Shown piece after piece: positions 2,087-20,286 of a stretch of 64,000 nt of DNA. Each line of letters opens with the position of its first letter. Position 1 is the stretch's first letter. The DNA is from Candidatus Undivivens industriae. GTDB taxonomy: Bacteria > Omnitrophota > Gorgyraeia > Gygaellales > Profunditerraquicolaceae. The stretch covers positions 13,293-77,292 of the forward strand of contig JAAYZR010000020.1 of assembly GCA_012514745.1 (NCBI GenBank). Direction: 5' to 3'. Below the pieces are notes generated by a model. That model ran no database searches and had not been told where the DNA came from. It saw only the letters and a program-made list of their open reading frames with translations. The position numbers and the translations under genes are program-made.

Positions 2087-2419
2087 TTAATCCTTCTTGA
2101 TCAGGAATTTTCCCAGCAGTATAACTACCGCCACGGTAATACCGATCCCGATAACCGCCGACGAGATATAGGCGAAGCTCAGATTACCCAACCCTTTCTC
2201 TTCCCATCCCTGGAAGGCGTAATCAGGAACGGGAGCGCTCCAGAGAGCCGAAAGCCTGGTAAATCCCTGCGGGACATATCCCACTAATTCCTGCAGAGTC
2301 TCCGCGCCCCACTCTCCCCAGGCGTCCCCCGCCTTGAAATATTCGGGAAGCAAAAGCCCCAGGGGGGAAAGAAACGCCAATAGAATCAATCCCAGCCAAA
2401 GTTTAGAAGTAGTTCTCAT
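2087..2419 (-). CDS. PDGLE-domain / CbiN-like small membrane component of the Ni/Co ECF transporter
   Basis: 110 aa with N-terminal TM, a PEYFKAGDAWGEWG segment (PDGLE-like) and a C-terminal TM; immediately downstream of cbiM. Confidence 0.55.
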   Translation of the reverse strand: MRTTSKLWLGLILLAFLSPLGLLLPEYFKAGDAWGEWGAETLQELVGYVPQGFTRLSALWSAPVPDYAFQGWEEKGLGNLSFAYISSAVIGIGITVAVVILLGKFLIKKD

Positions 2420-2423
2420 TTCC

Positions 2424-3107
2424 CTACCCCTCCTTTCCCGAAACGATCAATGAAGGATCCTGTTTCTGCAGGTATTTGACAACCAACGCGGTAATAAACG
2501 CCTCGACCCAGCCGAATACCAGCAAATGCTCTCCGAGCATCATCGGAACGGCGACATTAAGGCCGTAAGGACAATACAACGACTGGTCCGTCGGGGTTCT
2601 GTACAATAAAGGCTGTATGCCGAACATCAGCGCCGTAGTCAATGCGGCTATGTTCAACGCCAGGTAGCCGGCCGCGGCGGCGGCAAAAACCCTGCGGCCG
2701 GACGTTGAAGGCGAATTGCCGCTTATGAACTTGTAAATATAATAGCCGGTGAAGACCTCGACAAACGCCATATTGAAACAATTCGCGCCGACGGCGGTTA
2801 TGCCGCCGTCGCCGAAAAGCAGGGCTTGGACCACCAAGGCCACAGTGACCGCTATACAGGCGGCCCAGGGGCCGAGAAGTATAGCCGCCAGCACCGCGCC
2901 CACCGCGTGTCCGGTAGTCCCTCCGGGGATGGGGACGTTGAACATCATTATAACGAAACAGAAAGCGGCGCTGATGGCAAGCAGAGGGATTTGTTTGTTT
3001 TTAAGAGTTTTTTTAACCATCCGCGAAGCCAGCGCCCATACAGGCAACATCACCGCATACATCACTCCGCTCGTGGCGGGCCCCAAGTATCCGTCGGGTA
3101 TATGCAT
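2424..3107 (-). CDS. cbiM: ECF transporter substrate-specific component CbiM/NikM (nickel/cobalt)
   Basis: Starts MHIPDGYL, the hallmark N-terminus of CbiM/NikM; 227 aa polytopic. Confidence 0.9.
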   Translation of the reverse strand: MHIPDGYLGPATSGVMYAVMLPVWALASRMVKKTLKNKQIPLLAISAAFCFVIMMFNVPIPGGTTGHAVGAVLAAILLGPWAACIAVTVALVVQALLFGDGGITAVGANCFNMAFVEVFTGYYIYKFISGNSPSTSGRRVFAAAAAGYLALNIAALTTALMFGIQPLLYRTPTDQSLYCPYGLNVAVPMMLGEHLLVFGWVEAFITALVVKYLQKQDPSLIVSGKEG

Positions 3108-3155
3108 TTTTCTCTCCTGTGTTGATTGTTGTTCCTATCTCCAGGATATGTATGA

Positions 3156-3180
3156 TAGCACAAAAGCGATACTTGTGCTA
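3156..3180. promoter_or_regulatory. Perfect inverted repeat TAGCACAA-N9-TTGTGCTA between nikR and cbiM; candidate NikR operator
   Basis: 8-bp perfect arms separated by 9 bp, sitting in the 90-bp nikR-cbiM intergenic region; preceded by a GTATGA hexamer resembling the E. coli NikR half-site. Confidence 0.4.
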
Positions 3181-6830: not shown

Positions 6831-8272
6831 ATCGCCTCTCTTCCTAAGAAATCCATCACATTATTCGCCGCGTTCTCGGCAATAAGCGCGTTTCCTTTTC
6901 GCCGACAGTGTCCGAAGTTGCCTCCAAACATGTCCAGAAAATAATCCCGGTACCTGCCGCGTTTCAAGGCTTTTTTGAAAACATTCTCGTTGTCGATAAT
7001 AAGGACTCCGGGATTGCCGCCGAAAACTGTCTTCAAAGGTTCGACGCTACGCATGGGATACCCCATACACGCAAGTTTGATACCCTTTTTATCCAATATC
7101 TCCTTCATCTTTTTATAATTATATACGGTCAGAGCGCTGTAGGAAGATGCTTGCGCCGTATCCATCTTTCCGGTAAAGACGTCTGCCAAATCCGGCCTGC
7201 CGGTTTCCCGGTAAAGAGTGGATAATGCCGCGTAAACTTTTGCGCTCCCCGGATTAAAAGACACATATTTCTTTAGGACTTCCTCCGAACGGGAATATTT
7301 GCCTGTCCGCATATAAACCCAGGCGAGTTCCACATATCCTTTCTCATCGTAAGGATCAGCTTCTATAAGCCTTTTAAATATCTCCTCTGCGCTGTGATAC
7401 GCGGTCCTTGAAGAACAGAATAGCCCGTACCCCAGCAATGCTCCCTTGTCGGAAGGATCAACGTTCAATGCCGCCACAAAGCTATCTTTCGCTTCCAGAT
7501 ACTTCTTGTTCTGCGTATATGTCCACCCCAGTTCCACGTATGTGGAAGGATTGGTCGGGTTAACCGCCAGGGCTTTTCTAAACGCTTCTTCAGCCTTGAG
7601 ATATTGTCCTTTTTCCCGGTAAAATCTCCCAAGTCGTATATAATCATTCTCTCCGTATTTCCCGGGATCAGCTTCACCGGACTGCTCTTCCGCTGCCGGT
7701 TGTCCACCTATATCCGCGCCGGAGACAGGGGGAACCTTCTTTTTCGACACGGATCGCACCTTAAATTTCCCTCGGATATCCAATGAAAGAAACTTTAAGA
7801 AACGGTACGCGGCGGAATACCTAAACAATATGGATTCAGTATCCTGAATACCCTCGTAATATTTAATGTGCCTGTCGTTTATACCCATCATGGCGATCAC
7901 CATGTCCGGTTTGTATTTTTCCACATTCTCTTCCAAATGCCTGATGATATAGTTACTATCGACTGTAGATACGCCTTTATTGATCACACGAAAACAGAAC
8001 CCGTTCCCCAAGCGGTTCAACATCGTCTCAAGCTGGCTCGGATAAGAATTCTCCCCTCCTATCGCGGTGGAAGATTCACCGACGCACATAATCTTATAAA
8101 CTCCCCTGTGTTCTATACCCTGCCTGTTCCGGCATTCCTGTAGAAAAGATATCATGCAGCAGCCGAGACGGAGAACAATCTCAAGGAATATCAGGGACAT
8201 GAACAGTCCGGATATTACAACTAACGCCCGGGTAATCCCCTCGGTGAACTTTCTTCCCCTCATCGATATCAT
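6821..8272 (-). CDS. Membrane-anchored SGNH/GDSL-like hydrolase with a large TPR-repeat insertion (divergent paralog)
   Basis: N-terminal TM; block I as CVGESST, block III GINDRH; TPR repeats (AEEAFRKALAVNP...); C-terminal FGHC where DGHC is expected. Confidence 0.6.
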   Translation of the reverse strand: MISMRGRKFTEGITRALVVISGLFMSLIFLEIVLRLGCCMISFLQECRNRQGIEHRGVYKIMCVGESSTAIGGENSYPSQLETMLNRLGNGFCFRVINKGVSTVDSNYIIRHLEENVEKYKPDMVIAMMGINDRHIKYYEGIQDTESILFRYSAAYRFLKFLSLDIRGKFKVRSVSKKKVPPVSGADIGGQPAAEEQSGEADPGKYGENDYIRLGRFYREKGQYLKAEEAFRKALAVNPTNPSTYVELGWTYTQNKKYLEAKDSFVAALNVDPSDKGALLGYGLFCSSRTAYHSAEEIFKRLIEADPYDEKGYVELAWVYMRTGKYSRSEEVLKKYVSFNPGSAKVYAALSTLYRETGRPDLADVFTGKMDTAQASSYSALTVYNYKKMKEILDKKGIKLACMGYPMRSVEPLKTVFGGNPGVLIIDNENVFKKALKRGRYRDYFLDMFGGNFGHCRRKGNALIAENAANNVMDFLGREAIWK

Positions 8273-13203: not shown

Positions 13204-13230
13204 CTGGCACTCTTTTATAAAGAGTGCTAA
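13204..13230. promoter_or_regulatory. CIRCE element (HrcA operator) upstream of groES
   Basis: CTGGCACTC-N9-GAGTGCTAA, a near-perfect match to the consensus TTAGCACTC-N9-GAGTGCTAA, about 135 nt upstream of the groES start. Confidence 0.85.
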
Positions 13231-13357: not shown

Positions 13358-13942
13358 TCATTTTATAACACAAACTTTTTTTTCTGTCAAGAGGGTATTT
13401 TTTTTACCGGACGCGGAGCTTTTTCGCCTCAACTCTTCTATCTTCTCCTGCACGTACCAGGAAAAATATCCTTTATATTCCCTCTGCAGGGCCGGTTTCA
13501 TCCAGTCTTTGGTGGTGACCAGCCCGCGGCAGCGCGGAGAGCCGCAGCGGCACTTGAAAGAATAATCGAAATCCGCGTCGGTCATGCAGTAATCGTAGGT
13601 CACTTCTTCGCCGGGCGAGATATCGCGCATCGCCGCTATAATCAAATGCCCTTTGATCCCGGCGTTGGGGGAACAACTATGATTGAAAAAATCGTCATCC
13701 TCCAGCCCCCCTTTTTTACAGGAAACCAGGAAGAACCCGTCGGCCACCCGAGTGGCGTAATTTTCTATTTCTTTGAAACAGGTCTTTTCCAGCTTAACGA
13801 ACTCGGATTGCGAAATAATAAACCCTCCCCAGACCGCGATTATTTCGTTTTTCCTGATCGGCTCGACCGCGAAAACTCCGCGGTGATCGATCCCGGAACG
13901 GTTCACCTTGACTTTACCGCTGACGTAGGAATGCTTAAGCAT
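13358..13942 (-). CDS. SET-domain protein-lysine N-methyltransferase-like
   Basis: NHSCSPN motif, the catalytic Tyr region (TYDY) and a Cys-rich post-SET C-R-C-G-S-P-R-C. The start overlaps the upstream saccharopine-dehydrogenase-like gene by 8 nt. Confidence 0.75.
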   Translation of the reverse strand: MLKHSYVSGKVKVNRSGIDHRGVFAVEPIRKNEIIAVWGGFIISQSEFVKLEKTCFKEIENYATRVADGFFLVSCKKGGLEDDDFFNHSCSPNAGIKGHLIIAAMRDISPGEEVTYDYCMTDADFDYSFKCRCGSPRCRGLVTTKDWMKPALQREYKGYFSWYVQEKIEELRRKSSASGKKNTLLTEKKVCVIK

Positions 13943-14945
13943 TTCTTTTTTCCCGCCTGACGATCGTTACGCCTTGTTTTTTGACCCCGTCTATCAACGC
14001 CTGGAAAATCGTCTTGTCGGCGGCAAGGTCTTCCAGGAAAACCAGCCCTTTGCGCTCAATCTTTCCATCCAGCAAAAGCCTGCCGACTGCGGCCGGGACG
14101 CTGGCCGTTATTTTCTGCATCGAGTTCCACTTTTCCCTCGCAGCGGAAAAACTTTTCAAGAACCAGACGATGCGTTTGCCGGGGAAAACGACTTCCACCT
14201 CCCCAAGGGTATAATTTGCCCGCCTGATCCTCTCTAAAAAAGCCTTGCTTTCGGCCATGCGTTCCGGAGAAAACAATCCGTAGCTCTCGGAGAAACGGAA
14301 AAAGGCGGCGAACCCCGAGGGCCTGACCACGCGGCAGGTCAGGCTGCGCGCCCCTGTTTTATCCAGGATATTCTCGAATCCGCTGGCAGAATAATAACTT
14401 TCCGCCTCTATGCCGAAATACTTCTCCCTCCGGTAACCGGCAAATGCCGGGAACCTTTTCTTCCTGCCGGAAATGATCTGGCTGGATACGAGCCGGTGTT
14501 CGAGTATCAAATCCTCGAAACACCATAAAAAAGGGAAATAATCACCCTGCGGGGAGAGAGAGCCGGCCTTCACGTGGATCTCGAGCACTCGGACGGGAGA
14601 ACAGGTTTCCCTGCCGAGGAGAAAATTGACTATTCCGGGGCAGAAACCGCACCCCGGTATCACCGTTATCCCGCTTTTGCCGATCTCTTTTCCCCTGGCC
14701 TGGTATATTTCGGGATCGACATCCGAGACGTCGACGAGATCTTTACGGTATTTCAAAGCCAGGTCCAGACAGCGTTCACCGATCTCCCCGGCCAAAGCGC
14801 CGGTGATCAGATCGGCGTTCCGCAAATCTTTCTCGTTCTCGAGGGAGAAAGCGCGGATATCCCTGTTCTGCCTGTTGAAAAAATGCAGGACCGCGCGGCT
14901 TATACGGCCGTCTCCGGCAACCGCTACTTTGTAACGGAATTTCAT
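13935..14945 (-). CDS. Saccharopine dehydrogenase-family NAD(P)-binding protein (possible polyamine-modifying dehydrogenase)
   Basis: VAVAGDGRISR Rossmann start and ITVIPGCGFCPGIVN, typical of saccharopine / carboxy(nor)spermidine dehydrogenase-like enzymes. Downstream of speE. Confidence 0.65.
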   Translation of the reverse strand: MKFRYKVAVAGDGRISRAVLHFFNRQNRDIRAFSLENEKDLRNADLITGALAGEIGERCLDLALKYRKDLVDVSDVDPEIYQARGKEIGKSGITVIPGCGFCPGIVNFLLGRETCSPVRVLEIHVKAGSLSPQGDYFPFLWCFEDLILEHRLVSSQIISGRKKRFPAFAGYRREKYFGIEAESYYSASGFENILDKTGARSLTCRVVRPSGFAAFFRFSESYGLFSPERMAESKAFLERIRRANYTLGEVEVVFPGKRIVWFLKSFSAAREKWNSMQKITASVPAAVGRLLLDGKIERKGLVFLEDLAADKTIFQALIDGVKKQGVTIVRREKRNA

Positions 14946-15835
14946 CTCTTCTTGAGACGCCAGATCTTAGGCGTGACCAGGCTGGCCAGGTGCATTTCCG
15001 GGGAATAATACTTCAGGTCCGCGGCTTTGGCGCCCAGACGCTGCTGCAGCCTGCGCTTCAACACCGGAAGGGCAAGTTTTGCCGGATCGACCTTCTTGGA
15101 CGCCATCAGGAAGCAGTATTCGCATCCGCAGCTGTAGGAAGGCATCGGCAGCCTGACCGGATTAAGATAAGTGAACAGTTTGGAGAGTTTTTCCACCGTT
15201 CCCCTGATGATGATGTCGAAGTCCAGGAACGGCCCCAACTGGAATATGGCGATGCCGTCTTCCGTGAGAGCCTCGTGCACGCTCTTATAGAAATCCCCCT
15301 GGAACAGGGCTTTTCCCGGCCCCACGGGATCGGTGGAATCAACCACGATGATATCGAAATGATTCTTGTGCGCCTTGATGAATCTTCTGCCGTCCTGGAA
15401 GGCAAGAGTCAGTCTCTTGTCCGTGAAACTCCCCTGCGAGACGAAAGGCAGGTACTTCCTGGCCATCCCGACCACTTCCTCGTCGATATCTACCAAGCTC
15501 ATTTCCTTCAAAGGATGCTTGCGCGCCTCCCGCAGAACGCCGCCGTCCCCGCCCCCCACCACCAGCAGTCTTTTGGGATCCGGGTGCGTCATCAACGGCA
15601 CGTGGGCGATGATCTCGTGGTAAATAAACTCATCGCTCTGGGAAAATTGTATGATCCCGTCCAGGGCGAGCATCTTGCCGAACCCGAGGCTCTCGAATAT
15701 ATATATCTTTTGATATTTGGTCCTGCCGGCAAAGATTTCCTTTTCTACCCGGAAGGTATCTTTTTTGCATCGTCTGATGCCGGGAAAAGCGGCTTCCACA
15801 AACCATTTTTCTTTCTTCGCGGATATGGCTTTCAC
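14942..15835 (-). CDS. speE: Spermidine synthase (aminopropyltransferase)
   Basis: VVGGGDGGVLRE and DSTDPVGP motifs; 297 aa. Confidence 0.9.
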   Translation of the reverse strand: MKAISAKKEKWFVEAAFPGIRRCKKDTFRVEKEIFAGRTKYQKIYIFESLGFGKMLALDGIIQFSQSDEFIYHEIIAHVPLMTHPDPKRLLVVGGGDGGVLREARKHPLKEMSLVDIDEEVVGMARKYLPFVSQGSFTDKRLTLAFQDGRRFIKAHKNHFDIIVVDSTDPVGPGKALFQGDFYKSVHEALTEDGIAIFQLGPFLDFDIIIRGTVEKLSKLFTYLNPVRLPMPSYSCGCEYCFLMASKKVDPAKLALPVLKRRLQQRLGAKAADLKYYSPEMHLASLVTPKIWRLKKR

Positions 15836-15836
15836 T

Positions 15837-16202
15837 TTATAGTCCTCTTTTCAGCAATTTAACTCTTACTTTTGTAGGTTTGATTTTATTTTTAAGGAAT
15901 TCGAGGGCGGCGTAAGGGCGGGTATTTTCGCCGCAGGTAAAAATATCGAGGGCGATATGATTATGCTCGGGCCAGGTGTGAATGGCGATATGCGACTCCG
16001 CCAATATGACCACACCCGTAATCCCCTGCACGGGGAACTTGTACACGGAAGCTTTTAACGGCGTATTGTTGGCCGCTTTAGCCGCCCCCCAAAGCAATTT
16101 CTTCACCGCCGCGGGAGTCTCGTTCATCTTTTTAGGCGCTTCCAGATCGGCAATCAAATGGACAGTTCTAAAAGTCCCTTTTGTCTTAGAACAGCCTGTC
16201 AT
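15837..16202 (-). CDS. speH: S-adenosylmethionine decarboxylase proenzyme (SpeH type, pyruvoyl-dependent)
   Basis: 121 aa with the self-processing site ILAESHIAIHTWPE. Confidence 0.85.
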   Translation of the reverse strand: MTGCSKTKGTFRTVHLIADLEAPKKMNETPAAVKKLLWGAAKAANNTPLKASVYKFPVQGITGVVILAESHIAIHTWPEHNHIALDIFTCGENTRPYAALEFLKNKIKPTKVRVKLLKRGL

Positions 16203-16357
16203 CTCACCCCCCCCTATTTAAAGTTTCTCCGCCTTTTAAGCGGGTTTGTTGTAACGGTTTTAGAAGTAAACAACTCCCCTTATCTATTTAATTATATAAA
16301 TCCTTGGGAAAAAGCAAGTGTTTTTTGAATTTTTTTGGTTATTCCGGAGAATCTTTC

Positions 16358-17256: not shown

Positions 17257-18102
17257 TTATCTGTTCCTGCCCGCCCCGAACAGCGCCGAGACGGAGTAAC
17301 AGGCCGCGGCGAAAAGCACGATCGTCGCCCCGGACGCCGTTCCCCAATAGAAAGAAACGATCAAGCCGCTGATGCCGGAGAAAAGGCTGATCAACACCGC
17401 CCAGGCCGTGTAAGCGCGCATATTGCGGGAGATATTTCTGGCCGCCGCCGCCGGAAGCACAAGCAAGGAATTTATGATCAATATCCCGGCCAGTCTTATA
17501 GAAAGGATCACCACCAGCGCCAGCAGCAAGGTAAAACTAGTCTCCACCCAGAAAGTATTCACCTTGCGGCTGCGCGCCAGAGAAGAACTGATACTGGTGA
17601 AGATCATGGCATTACCGGCGGCGAGCCAATATACCATAACGGCCGCGGCGATCGCCAGCAGCCATCCTATCTGCGCGGGGGTAACGGTCAGGATATCCCC
17701 GATCAGGTAACCGGTGTATTTCGCGAAACCTCCCCGTCTGCTCAAGATAACTATTCCCAAGGCCACGATAAAAGCGAACAATACGCCCAGGACGGTATCC
17801 ATAGACGCCCGCGTCATGTTTTTCAAAAGGTTGACGCCTACGGAAAGCAGCACCGCCAGCAGAAGCATCGGCAATACCGGGTCCTGAAAGCCGAGCAGAA
17901 CGCCGATGGCGATACCGGTAAGCGCGGAATGCCCCAGGACATCGGTAAAGAAAACCATGCGGTTGCTGACCACCATCGTTCCCATCAAAGCGAACAGCGG
18001 GGTGACCAGCAAAACCGCCAGCAGGGCGTTTTTCATGAAGACATAATGCGCCCATTCAAAAGGCAGGGTGTTTACCAATTTGTACCAGAAGTCAATCAGC
18101 AT
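17257..18102 (-). CDS. znuB: Metal ABC transporter permease (ZnuB/TroCD family)
   Basis: 281 aa ABC-3 family polytopic permease, last gene of the zur-znuA-znuC-znuB block. Confidence 0.8.
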   Translation of the reverse strand: MLIDFWYKLVNTLPFEWAHYVFMKNALLAVLLVTPLFALMGTMVVSNRMVFFTDVLGHSALTGIAIGVLLGFQDPVLPMLLLAVLLSVGVNLLKNMTRASMDTVLGVLFAFIVALGIVILSRRGGFAKYTGYLIGDILTVTPAQIGWLLAIAAAVMVYWLAAGNAMIFTSISSSLARSRKVNTFWVETSFTLLLALVVILSIRLAGILIINSLLVLPAAAARNISRNMRAYTAWAVLISLFSGISGLIVSFYWGTASGATIVLFAAACYSVSALFGAGRNR

Positions 18103-18913
18103 TATCTCCGCCTTTGCCCTTATCCTTTACAATATCGGGCAGACAGGAAATATTCCACAAAGCCGCTCCGAATACCTCCACTAATTTACCGTCTGCCAGC
18201 ACCTCCTGCGGCGCGCCTTCAGCGATTACGCCGCGGTTAAGCAGCACCATCTTGTCCACGTAAGAATAGATCCCCGCAAGATCGTGCGTCACCAGAACGA
18301 CCGAGATATCATGCGTTTGCCGCAGACCGCGCACGATGCGGTAGAAAAGCGCCAATCCTTTCGCGTCCACTCCGCCGGCAGGCTCGTCGAGCAAAAGAAG
18401 ATCCGGGGCGGGCGTCATGGCGATCGCCAGCAGAACGCGCTGCAATTCCCCTCCGGAAAGATCGCCGACCTTTCTTTTGACAAGGTGCTCCGCGGAAAAC
18501 AGCGATAGGACCTCTTTGACCCTGCCGGCAGTGCTGCCGTCTATCCCGGCCCAAACCGGCCTGCGGGTTACCGCCGATGCCACCAAATCCGCGACGCTGA
18601 CGGGCGCCCCCTTTTCCAAATGCAGTTTCTGCGGAACATAACCTATTTGGGGCGTCTGGGAAGGATTACCGCCGACGCGGAAGGATATCCTCCCCTGGTA
18701 AGGCATCTCTCCCATCAAAGTGCGCAACAGAGTGGTCTTGCCCGCCCCGTTGGGCCCGACCACGCCGACGACCTCGCCGCAGTTAACGTGCAGATTGACT
18801 CTAGACAGTATAACGTTGCTGCCCAGTTTTACCGTCAGATCCTCCACCCTCGTGCAGCAATGTTCGCAGGTATTAAGCAATCCGTCTCCTCCGCCTTTAT
18901 TTCCGGAAGGCAT
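18092..18913 (-). CDS. znuC: Metal ABC transporter ATP-binding protein (ZnuC)
   Basis: Walker A GPNGAGKTTLL, signature LSGGELQRV, Walker B LLLDEP. Confidence 0.85.
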   Translation of the reverse strand: MPSGNKGGGDGLLNTCEHCCTRVEDLTVKLGSNVILSRVNLHVNCGEVVGVVGPNGAGKTTLLRTLMGEMPYQGRISFRVGGNPSQTPQIGYVPQKLHLEKGAPVSVADLVASAVTRRPVWAGIDGSTAGRVKEVLSLFSAEHLVKRKVGDLSGGELQRVLLAIAMTPAPDLLLLDEPAGGVDAKGLALFYRIVRGLRQTHDISVVLVTHDLAGIYSYVDKMVLLNRGVIAEGAPQEVLADGKLVEVFGAALWNISCLPDIVKDKGKGGDNAD

Positions 18914-19787
18914 TCTTCAAAACTTCCAGATTCTTTTCCATTATCTTAAAATAGGCGCCGTCTTCGTCCGGTCCGCTCACCGCCGGATCAAGCACATACA
19001 CTTTCAATCCTGTTTCCGCGGCGATGGTTTCGGCGGCTGAAGACGGATACTGGGGTTCGCTGAACAACACGCAGCCGTCTCCGCCCGAATTCTTGATCAG
19101 GTCTATCGTCTCCGCAAGTTCCTTCGCGCTGGGCTCGCTCCCCGGTTCTCGTTCCACCACGGCCGCGATCTCCAGTCCAAATTCCTCGGCGAAATACGGG
19201 AACGCCTCGTGAAAAGTGATAATCTTCCTGCCTTTATAGGACGACAGCTGCGCGTGCATTTGTTTCCGCAGAGAGTCCAGCTTCGCTGCGTAGTCGGCTG
19301 TATTCTGGGCGTAAAACTCTTTGTGCGCCGGATCCAGGCTTTGCATGGCCGCGCCGAGGTTCTTCACCTGTTTGACGGCGCCGGAAATGCCCACCCAGAT
19401 ATGAGGGTTTGCCTCATCACCGCTTTTTATCAAAGAAATCCCTTCCGATACGCCGATAATGCGCAAACCGGGATGCCGGGCCGCCACCTCTTCAAGAAAA
19501 GACTCCATGCCGGCGCCGTTAACGATCAACGCCTGGGCCCCGGCGAGCTTTTTCATGTCCGCGGCAGTAAGCGCGTAATCATGCAGGCACCCGGTGAACG
19601 GTGGAGTAAGATTTTCCAGCGACACTCCCGGCACGTCTTTTATCACGTTCCTGGCCATAATATACACCGGATAAAAAGAAGCGACTACCTTTATTTCCTT
19701 CTGCGCGGCGCACGCGCCGCGCGCGAACACACCGGTAAATACCGACAACAACACAACTCCCGTCACAAACCGTTTATATCCATTCAT
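18897..19787 (-). CDS. znuA: Periplasmic metal-binding lipoprotein/solute-binding protein (ZnuA/TroA family)
   Basis: Signal peptide; TroA-fold residues (HDY, HIW, H-E); 296 aa. Confidence 0.85.
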   Translation of the reverse strand: MNGYKRFVTGVVLLSVFTGVFARGACAAQKEIKVVASFYPVYIMARNVIKDVPGVSLENLTPPFTGCLHDYALTAADMKKLAGAQALIVNGAGMESFLEEVAARHPGLRIIGVSEGISLIKSGDEANPHIWVGISGAVKQVKNLGAAMQSLDPAHKEFYAQNTADYAAKLDSLRKQMHAQLSSYKGRKIITFHEAFPYFAEEFGLEIAAVVEREPGSEPSAKELAETIDLIKNSGGDGCVLFSEPQYPSSAAETIAAETGLKVYVLDPAVSGPDEDGAYFKIMEKNLEVLKNAFRK

Positions 19788-19815
19788 CTCCGCCTCCCTT
19801 AAGAATATTGTCCGG

Positions 19816-20247
19816 TTATGGGCTTTCCTTCCTCCGGCATTCCGAACACAACCCTTCTATACGCAGAAAATGATGCTGAACCTTGGCGTTAAGTTTTTCT
19901 TCTATGAAACTGGATATTTCCGGAAAATTGCAGAATTCCACCTCTTCGACTTTGTTGCACTTGCTGCAGACAAAATGATGGTGATCTATATGCGGCTTGC
20001 GGCAGAGACTGTAATAAAGCCGCCGGCTGCCGTGTTCTATTTTTGCCAGGATACCGGCCCCCTCCAGTTCTTCCAGGATACGGTAGATTGAAGGCAGACC
20101 TACCTCCAGAGACTCCTTCCCCAGCATCTGTTTGATCTCATAAGGGCCGAGATACCGTTTTTGCCGCAAGAACAACTCAAGCACCGCTTTTCTGCGCGGA
20201 GTTATCTTGAAATGATGTTCTTTTAATACCGCCAGATATTTTTCCAT
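19816..20247 (-). CDS. zur: Fur-family transcriptional regulator, likely Zur
   Basis: MEKYLAVLKEHHFKITPRRKAVLELF... wHTH and the C-terminal Cys pairs C-SKC...CSEC. The track ORF begins 13 codons upstream; the ATG at 20247 is the likely start. Confidence 0.8.
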   Translation of the reverse strand: MEKYLAVLKEHHFKITPRRKAVLELFLRQKRYLGPYEIKQMLGKESLEVGLPSIYRILEELEGAGILAKIEHGSRRLYYSLCRKPHIDHHHFVCSKCNKVEEVEFCNFPEISSFIEEKLNAKVQHHFLRIEGLCSECRRKESP

Positions 20248-20286
20248 TATGCTTTGCTCGCGAACCTCCGCAAAAACTCCGGGCAA

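Follow-up and report, generated by a model that had tools for sequence, protein, structure and literature searches.

A SET-domain methyltransferase gene within a conserved polyamine gene cassette of Candidatus Omnitrophota

SET domains are almost synonymous with protein-lysine methylation. Our literature searches found a single characterised bacterial SET enzyme that acts on a small molecule, BurB, a methionine S-methyltransferase from Burkholderia thailandensis (PDB 9l4t and 9l4v). A second precedent is a prediction: according to the extract of Michael (2011, FEBS Lett 585:2627) quoted in PMC3820600, diatoms carry fusions of S-adenosylmethionine decarboxylase (AdoMetDC) with an aminopropyltransferase, sometimes together with a histone-methyltransferase domain, which are predicted to make N-methylated long-chain polyamines and which the quoted extract treats as uncharacterised. 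The polyamine domains of these fusions are described as bacterially derived in passages of PMC3820600 and PMC6356823. Here we describe a SET-domain gene (SET) that ends a four-gene polyamine cassette (13358 to 16202, minus strand) in a 64,000-nucleotide stretch of the genome of Candidatus Undivivens industriae (Omnitrophota; contig JAAYZR010000020.1, positions 13,293 to 77,292), hereafter called the window. The other three genes encode an AdoMetDC (speH), an aminopropyltransferase (speE) and a saccharopine-dehydrogenase-like protein (SDHL). The SET methyltransferase would have a new and conserved biosynthetic role inside an undescribed polyamine module, with BurB and the diatom fusions as its precedents, and it is the best bacterial candidate so far for a SET protein that methylates polyamines rather than proteins.

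BurB is a proven small-molecule SET enzyme, and the window SET is likewise encoded within, and co-inherited with, small-molecule biosynthetic genes. BurB differs in methylating a methionine sulfur, not an amine, and in being unrelated to polyamine genes. The window SET has a post-SET CxCx4C zinc cluster and a C-terminal helix, and it is nearer to MLL1-type SET domains than to BurB. The diatom fusions likewise unite AdoMetDC, aminopropyltransferase and a histone-type methyltransferase in one genetic unit, with the logic of building a polyamine and then N-methylating it, but they are eukaryotic multi-domain proteins whereas the bacterial genes are separate, coupled and accompanied by a dehydrogenase. 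MLL1/KMT2 and ASH1L differ from the window SET, which has only 194 residues, is without WDR5/RbBP5/ASH2L-type partners or a pre-SET or AWS domain, and lies among polyamine genes. S-adenosylmethionine (SAM)-dependent methylation of a polyamine primary amine is known from plant PMT and coca SPMT (PMC9894180; PMC10407285), the only characterised polyamine N-methyltransferases found in the literature, but these are class I Rossmann-fold alkaloid enzymes evolved from spermidine synthase and not SET proteins. Our searches found no paper that combines a SET domain, a polyamine and an aminopropyltransferase, and no description of speE and SDHL as a two-gene module. An earlier reading of the locus made from the sequence alone (the sequence-only reading) had called this association uncharacterised, which agrees with the bacterial literature searched but leaves out the diatom precedent predicted in the extract quoted in PMC3820600.

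Linkage of SET to aminopropyltransferase genes

The cassette begins with speH (15837..16202, 121 aa), followed by speE (14942..15835, 297 aa, GTG start) and SDHL (13935..14945, 336 aa), and its last gene, SET (13358..13942, 194 aa), encodes a predicted methyltransferase whose SET domain is accompanied by a post-SET zinc cluster and a conserved C-terminal helix; all four genes lie on the minus strand. As read from the sequence, speE starts one nucleotide beyond the end of speH (TAA-A-GTG), speE and SDHL overlap by 4 nt (14942..14945), in an ATGA that contains the stop of the former and the start of the latter, and SDHL and SET overlap by the 8 nt ATGCTTAA (13935..13942), so that the SET start codon lies within the end of SDHL, an arrangement that we take as predicted translational coupling. 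The sequence-only reading had given overlaps of 1-8 nt throughout, which holds for the second and third junctions but not for the first, where there is a 1-nt gap. Its four gene identifications were right at the superfamily level, and the motifs that it quoted (ESHIAIHTWPE in speH, NHSCSPN and a post-SET Cys cluster in SET) are present. No second copy of speH, speE, SDHL or BpsA (a branched-chain polyamine synthase homologue, see below) was found in the 64-kb window.

A SET alignment scanned against one genome per species returned 80 loci, and the close homologues come almost all from metagenome-assembled genomes of Candidatus Omnitrophota; in WOZK01000007.1 (Omnitrophota isolate WOFB22) the corresponding region has 94.5% DNA identity to the window. 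The order speE-SDHL-SET, on one strand, is present in all 19 loci in which SET is at least 48% identical (L001-L018 and L040), and 16 of the 19 also have speH. These loci belong to Omnitrophota bins, one Saccharibacteria bin and one Paceibacterota bin. The arrangement is therefore not unique to this genome, whereas it was uniqueness, together with a separately acquired SET gene, that the sequence-only reading had named as a refutation; dozens of Omnitrophota and candidate phyla radiation (CPR) loci share it. The genes flanking the cassette show no conservation among the related loci.

Profile hidden Markov models (HMMs) of SpeE, SpeH, BpsA and SDHL were run on six-frame translations of the other 61 loci. 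Only two (L020 and L021) gave a match, both to BpsA (PF01861, ∼85 bits), whose gene ends 4 nt inside the start of SET (L020 6832-7956; L021 6796-7953). These are also the only outside loci with a SET protein of the cassette clade, recognised by an insert at residues 54-57, L80, D83 and Tyr116, and when the clade was drawn by identity and average-linkage clustering it separated cleanly only with these two included. An aminopropyltransferase gene adjoins SET in 21/21 loci of the clade and in 0/59 outside it; these 59 are devoid of polyamine genes within 8 kb. Recurrent neighbours of the distant SET genes (guaB, guaA, rsmB and rlmE) appeared only among related Hyphomicrobium-type genomes and are uninformative. 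BpsA homologues (PF01861) accompany SET in two further loci, L015 (5004-6155) and L017 (1265-2401), where both genes are present. They occur in bins labelled as CPR/Patescibacteria and in assorted metagenomes; branched polyamines are, according to a 2026 review, predominantly a trait of thermophiles.

The linkage was also approached from SDHL, by scanning metagenomes with an SDHL alignment, which gave 65 loci (L081-L145) partly redundant with the genome set. Directly upstream of SDHL lies speE in all 58 evaluable loci, and SET lies directly downstream in 33 of 55, the other 22 being without it. The tightest partnership is that of speE and SDHL, with SET a frequent but dispensable third member. 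Spacing is generally tight, being ≤25 nt from speE to SDHL in 72/74 related loci (44/74 overlapping, a 4-nt overlap being usual for this pair) and ≤25 nt from SDHL to SET in 44/48 distinct loci (28/48 overlapping, by -8 or -4). SDHL identity falls to ∼40% over this set, and cassettes with SET are scattered over the SDHL tree, while those without it group into a few clades. Among 43 non-identical cassettes the mean identity to the window proteins is 64% for SET, 63% for SpeE and 50% for SDHL, and the three values vary together (r 0.72-0.85), which is what joint inheritance as a unit would predict.

Cassettes without SET are of several types. Fifteen loci (such as L098, L119 and L131) have the order speH-BpsA-speE-SDHL followed by secA or, in four, by a GNAT acetyltransferase gene (∼150 aa) directly after SDHL in the slot that SET holds elsewhere (L119 7066-7512; L120 6259-6756; L129 1993-2484; L131 5355-5822). 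An acetylated branched polyamine is a known natural product of Thermococcus (PMC12979288). Another type carries a second, divergently transcribed speH-speE pair. A PEMT/ICMT-family methyltransferase (2413-3165) is encoded ∼230 bp downstream of SDHL in L107. Among further variants of the cassette, L117 carries a tandem pair of speE genes. In L140 a divergent AdoMetDC homologue follows SET (7738-8160; LVESSIVIHT..DIYCC, 37 bits against the speH profile) and is possibly a neofunctionalised decarboxylase. In two Omnitrophota cassettes that lack speH, a divergently transcribed gene just upstream of speE encodes a protein of 640-655 aa (L008 3969-5891; L013 3987-5954) with a multi-pass membrane N-terminus and B12-binding and radical SAM domains. 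A 413-aa open reading frame (ORF) in L040 (5498-6739) has AdoMetDC and spermidine synthase domains and is a putative speH-speE fusion, for which a sequencing frameshift is possible; speH-speE fusions of this kind have been reported from marine bacteria and diatoms.

The encoded proteins and the limits of the operon

The SET protein matches the Pfam SET model (PF00856) over residues 21-118 with 57.5 bits against a cut-off of 22.4, in agreement with the assignment in the sequence-only reading, while no NCBIfam model matches it. The SET fold was recovered, and the top matches in both sequence and fold are histone or other protein lysine methyltransferases (KMTs). MLL1 and BurB both score highly in the fold comparison, which consequently does not separate protein-type from small-molecule SET enzymes. 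N87, H88, C90 and Y118 are invariant among 38 homologues, and the segment E112-E113-x-T-Y116-D117-Y118 is present; the NHSC and EExTYDY motifs align with the NHSC and ELTYDY motifs of MLL1. The predicted zinc ligands, C90 of NHSC and C131-x-C133-x4-C138, are likewise invariant in the homologues, and the catalytic and zinc-binding apparatus appears intact. Tyr116 aligns with MLL1 Tyr3942, which we take from established SET enzymology to be the Phe/Tyr switch, a residue that restricts how many methyl groups are transferred. This position is Tyr in 20/21 members of the cassette clade and Phe in most other members of the family, which suggests a mono-methylated product. Two segments carry the changes specific to the clade, the SET-I insert at residues 54-57 and the acidic loop LEDDDF, including D83, that precedes NHSC; both line the substrate site in known SET enzymes. 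A C-terminal extension (DW..LQ..Y.GYFS.Y.Q.KI) is specific to the family, whose members are annotated by NCBI as 'protein-lysine N-methyltransferase'.

An exhaustive profile search gave 16,308 cluster representatives of this SET family at E≤1e-3, a number hard to reconcile with the remark in the sequence-only reading that bacterial SET proteins are uncommon. One member, P0291, is a continuous ORF in which a SET domain (residues 12-171) is fused to an AdoMetDC-like domain (AdoMet_dc, 196-302), encoded right behind a gene for a canonical SpeD of 138 aa. With the sequence ..VQLIETS..GHF..SCAYY.., the fused domain is probably of the SpeD-derived ornithine decarboxylase type (SpeDC), given the resemblance of this pattern to the Gln, Thr, Phe and Tyr residues that an extract of PMC10407285 gives as diagnostic for SpeDC; neofunctionalised decarboxylases for ornithine or arginine (SpeDC/SpeDA) occur in some Omnitrophota. 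Other fusions within the family are to MFS, LPG_synthase_C (lysyl-lipid), class I methyltransferase and Kdo-transferase domains (P0386, P0373, P0375, P0357 and P0289), which hints at non-protein substrates elsewhere in the family. No SpeE-SET fusion was found among the 150 best representatives, and an SDHL-SET fusion was looked for without success; P0203 (541 aa), considered as one, is SDHL with an unrelated lipoprotein-like tail. Many of the top representatives (P0241-P0262 and others) are tandem double-SET proteins of ∼350 aa, and the long multi-SET proteins P0259, P0268, P0273 and P0287 contain no polyamine domains.

The two first proteins of the cassette are recognisable as polyamine biosynthetic enzymes. 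SpeH matches PF02675 (109 bits) and the equivalog model TIGR03330 (113.8 bits against a cut-off of 75.65), has the AdoMetDC proenzymes 2iii and 1tlu as its best solved relatives, and carries the canonical ES/H..H..C pattern, AESHIAIHTWPE...FTCG, with the Glu-Ser cleavage site, the catalytic His and the Cys; by these features it is assigned to the class 1b pyruvoyl AdoMetDCs (SpeH/SpeD). The ETS..GHF pattern of the domain fused in P0291 is missing from it, which suggests that SpeH may be a bona fide AdoMetDC. SpeE is assigned to the polyamine aminopropyltransferases of the spermidine-synthase type by its matches to NF002010 (288 bits against 260), TIGR00417 (260 against 249.55) and the catalytic and tetramerisation domains PF01564 and PF17284; the GGGDGG and DSTDP motifs are present and its best solved relatives are ordinary spermidine synthases.

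SDHL is more divergent. Pfam gives PF16653 alone, at 24.9 bits and so under the cut-off of 31, with no match to an N-terminal domain, and NCBIfam gives no match. A profile of 40 family members aligns over positions 4-329 with L-lysine 6-dehydrogenase PH1688 of P. horikoshii (PDB 3ABI; E 4e-36), and the AlphaFold2 model (predicted local distance difference test score 92.8) finds 3abi first in Foldseek (TM 0.82), then the saccharopine dehydrogenase domain of AASS, then carboxyspermidine dehydrogenase. SDHL and 3ABI have in common the two-domain fold and a GxGxxG-type dinucleotide motif, and 3ABI is the closest solved relative, but they are 22% identical, SDHL is short of ∼22 Rossmann-domain residues, and it has motifs of its own (FPFLWCFEDL and NSMQKITA, conserved in the family together with PGCGFSPGLVN and with GDGRIA, in which G11 and G13 are invariant). 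SDHL would accordingly seem to be a lysine-dehydrogenase-like member of the saccharopine-dehydrogenase superfamily, an amine dehydrogenase of the NAD(P) type whose Rossmann domain is shortened. At 22% identity a specificity for the lysine epsilon-amine does not follow from the sequence, and the presence of SDHL beside speE in all 58 evaluable loci suggests a polyamine rather than a lysine substrate. The sequence-only reading had made SDHL a dehydrogenase of the carboxyspermidine/homospermidine type. By profile, carboxyspermidine dehydrogenase 8deb gives an insignificant E of 0.07 (E ∼1e-18 in Foldseek for 8deb and 8h4z), which makes it a relative at the level of the fold, with L-lysine 6-dehydrogenase nearest. 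SDHL shares its structural superfamily with carboxyspermidine dehydrogenase (CASDH/CAPADH) and bacterial homospermidine synthase, enzymes that act on polyamine C-N bonds (PMC13625781); SDHL is ∼60-130 residues shorter and is paired with an aminopropyltransferase dependent on decarboxylated SAM. No gene for a carboxyspermidine decarboxylase partner or for a pyridoxal phosphate (PLP)-dependent decarboxylase is present in the cassette.

The reaction of SDHL is the weakest step of the proposed mechanism; by homology, SDHL is likely to interconvert an amine and an aldehyde or imine with NAD(P). Three members of the superfamily, saccharopine dehydrogenase, carboxyspermidine dehydrogenase and homospermidine synthase, make or break secondary amines, the last by NAD-dependent transfer of an aminobutyl group (PMC13625781), and this favours SDHL as a polyamine dehydrogenase acting on the product of SpeE. 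No enzyme has yet been assigned to the conversion of thermospermine into norspermidine (PMC12979288), which makes the SDHL class a candidate for it. According to PMC10407285, PLP synthesis is largely absent from Omnitrophota, which rely on pyruvoyl decarboxylases; an NAD enzyme, being economical in cofactors, fits such a PLP-poor lifestyle. Two other assignments were considered and set aside. A pairing in which SDHL is a carboxyspermidine dehydrogenase and SpeH supplies a pyruvoyl carboxyspermidine decarboxylase is unparsimonious, the invariant partner of SDHL being speE and not speH, and SDHL as a PLP-free ornithine-forming dehydrogenase, though possible, leaves the strict adjacency of speE unexplained.

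Consensus promoter and terminator scans of 12.7-17.0 kb gave nothing above the shuffled expectation, so the limits of the operon rest on gene spacing and on a CIRCE site. Upstream, an AT-rich spacer of 155 bp (16203..16357, minus strand) lies between a peptidyl-prolyl isomerase gene and speH and is, by position alone, the presumed promoter region. Downstream, the 288-bp spacer between SET and groES contains a CIRCE inverted repeat, the HrcA operator (CTGGCACTC-N9-GAGTGCTAA, 13204-13230), two mismatches from the consensus and with a chance expectation of none. Its position ahead of groES-groEL indicates that groESL is a separate heat-shock unit and that the polyamine cassette ends at SET. The GC content of SET (0.49; GC3 0.62) is within the spread of its neighbours (0.48-0.58; GC3 0.54-0.72) and gives no sign of foreign origin, hence no sign of the separate acquisition that the sequence-only reading had named as a possible objection. 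Further upstream on the same strand (17257-20286) the translations suggest, by eye, a Zn/Mn-type metal ABC transporter, with a permease (17257-18102), an ATPase (18092-18913) and a binding protein (18897-19787), and a Fur-family regulator with CxxC pairs (19816-20286).

Weighing the substrate of SET

What was observed here is the identity of the genes, their coupling and conserved linkage, the alternative architectures and the intact SET motifs. From this we infer that the methyl acceptor is a polyamine, and we hold, with slightly more belief than doubt, that SET places an N-methyl group on the polyamine that its partner aminopropyltransferase produces. The four genes would then be a single operon for polyamine tailoring, translationally coupled and present in Omnitrophota and some CPR bacteria. 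SpeH would supply decarboxylated SAM, with which SpeE would aminopropylate an amine acceptor; SDHL would oxidise or form a C-N bond in the polyamine produced by SpeE or in its acceptor; and SET, with SAM, would N-methylate a terminal primary amine, similar to a lysine side chain, on the resulting polyamine, capping the product or tuning its charge. The GNAT acetyltransferase of sister cassettes would do an equivalent job by acetylation. Several kinds of evidence point this way. Linkage tracks the SET clade (21/21 inside, 0/59 outside) and is kept through deep divergence; one SET clade is coupled to both the SpeE and the BpsA families, whose common factor is a polyamine product and not a protein surface; SET is replaced by GNAT in four cassettes and fused to an AdoMetDC-like domain in the Rosetta-stone protein P0291; and the catalytic and zinc-binding residues are invariant, with changes peculiar to the clade in the SET-I insert and the loop before NHSC. 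Of the two functions offered by the sequence-only reading, small-molecule polyamine N-methylation is thereby favoured, while unproven, and protein-lysine methylation is retained as an option.

Several observations weigh on the other side. The P0291 fusion comes from a single 5.6-kb contig in one sample (L146 1142-2490; Logan SRR31660265). A polyamine neighbour is lacking in 59 of the 61 loci outside the cassette, so the ancestral substrate of the wider SET family may differ, and the 22 of 55 SDHL cassettes that lack SET show that the module can do without it. Much of the co-occurrence seen in Omnitrophota is vertical inheritance, which leaves ∼3-4 independent architectures and not dozens of independent events. 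In the literature we found no report of N-methylated polyamines from Omnitrophota or CPR bacteria.

A conventional protein-lysine methyltransferase, merely co-expressed with polyamine synthesis, is an unlikely alternative. It might act on a nucleoid or ribosomal protein charge-balanced against polyamines, or on the aminopropyltransferase itself, and it would account for histone and protein KMTs being the best sequence and fold matches, for the intact post-SET zinc cluster and Tyr/Phe-switch residue typical of KMTs, for the NCBI name 'protein-lysine N-methyltransferase' of the homologues and for the mostly orphan state of the wider family. It sits less well with the coupling of the clade to two non-orthologous aminopropyltransferases, SpeE and BpsA, with the GNAT found in place of SET and with the fusion of one family member to an AdoMetDC homologue; SET is not accompanied by any candidate substrate gene, and BurB shows that a KMT-like fold does not imply a protein substrate. 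Some other small molecule of the pathway (free lysine or ornithine, the amino-aldehyde or amine of SDHL, or lipid- or peptide-linked lysine) seems improbable as the acceptor. BpsA-SET pairs occur without SDHL, so the substrate of SET cannot depend on SDHL chemistry, and the cassette has no conserved gene of a lysine or ornithine pathway, although SDHL is most like lysine 6-dehydrogenase, SET channels are built for a lysine side chain, and the fusions to LPG_synthase_C or class I methyltransferases suggest diverse non-protein substrates within the family.

The remaining two explanations we regard as very improbable. Were SET a passenger, captured once and inherited vertically, the synteny would have no functional meaning; the descent of most loci from a common Omnitrophota stock, and the loss of SET from 22 of 55 cassettes that kept speE-SDHL, would be as expected. 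Against this, 28 of 48 loci have retained start/stop overlaps in spite of deep divergence, independent architectures exist (BpsA-SET, BpsA-speE-SDHL-SET, and SpeD followed by the SET::AdoMetDC-like fusion), and SET is the best conserved of the three proteins (mean identity 64%, against 50% for SDHL); the flanking genes are not conserved. A hypusine-like modification, in which SDHL moves part of a polyamine onto a protein lysine and SET methylates the new terminal amine, is speculation and to our minds the most far-fetched of the explanations. The 2011 diatom prediction is said to have included transfer of a polyamine to protein as well. SDHL does belong to the structural superfamily of bacterial homospermidine synthase, with its NAD-dependent aminobutyl transfer (PMC13625781), but it is nearer to lysine dehydrogenase than to homospermidine synthase, no gene for a target protein is conserved, and BpsA-SET occurs without SDHL.

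Polyamine N-methylation by SET, the reading preferred here, can also be put in a bolder form, which we think unlikely: the cassette would be a bacterial machine for N-methylated, possibly nor- or long-chain polyamines, with SpeE the source of the aminopropyl units, SDHL a long-sought NAD-dependent polyamine dehydrogenase that cleaves off the aminobutyl end, in a reaction of the thermospermine-to-norspermidine type, and SET the first polyamine N-methyltransferase of the SET class.

Significance for SET enzymes and polyamine biology

Whatever the substrate of SET, the speE-SDHL pair is an undescribed polyamine module and a candidate for an unassigned polyamine dehydrogenase step, and it may be of wider interest than SET itself. 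If SET does methylate a polyamine, SET chemistry would extend to free polyamines, and SET proteins would gain a polyamine-directed counterpart, as amine oxidases (LSD1/polyamine oxidase), deacetylases (HDAC10) and acetyltransferases have. N-methylated polyamines would then be predicted in two large, mostly uncultured and PLP-poor lineages, Omnitrophota and CPR. The cassette would also provide a simple, expressible bacterial system in which to probe the 2011 diatom prediction on the methylation of long-chain polyamines, and, in the bolder form of the reading, a prokaryotic model, perhaps even the source, of the predicted silica-forming polyamine machinery of diatoms.

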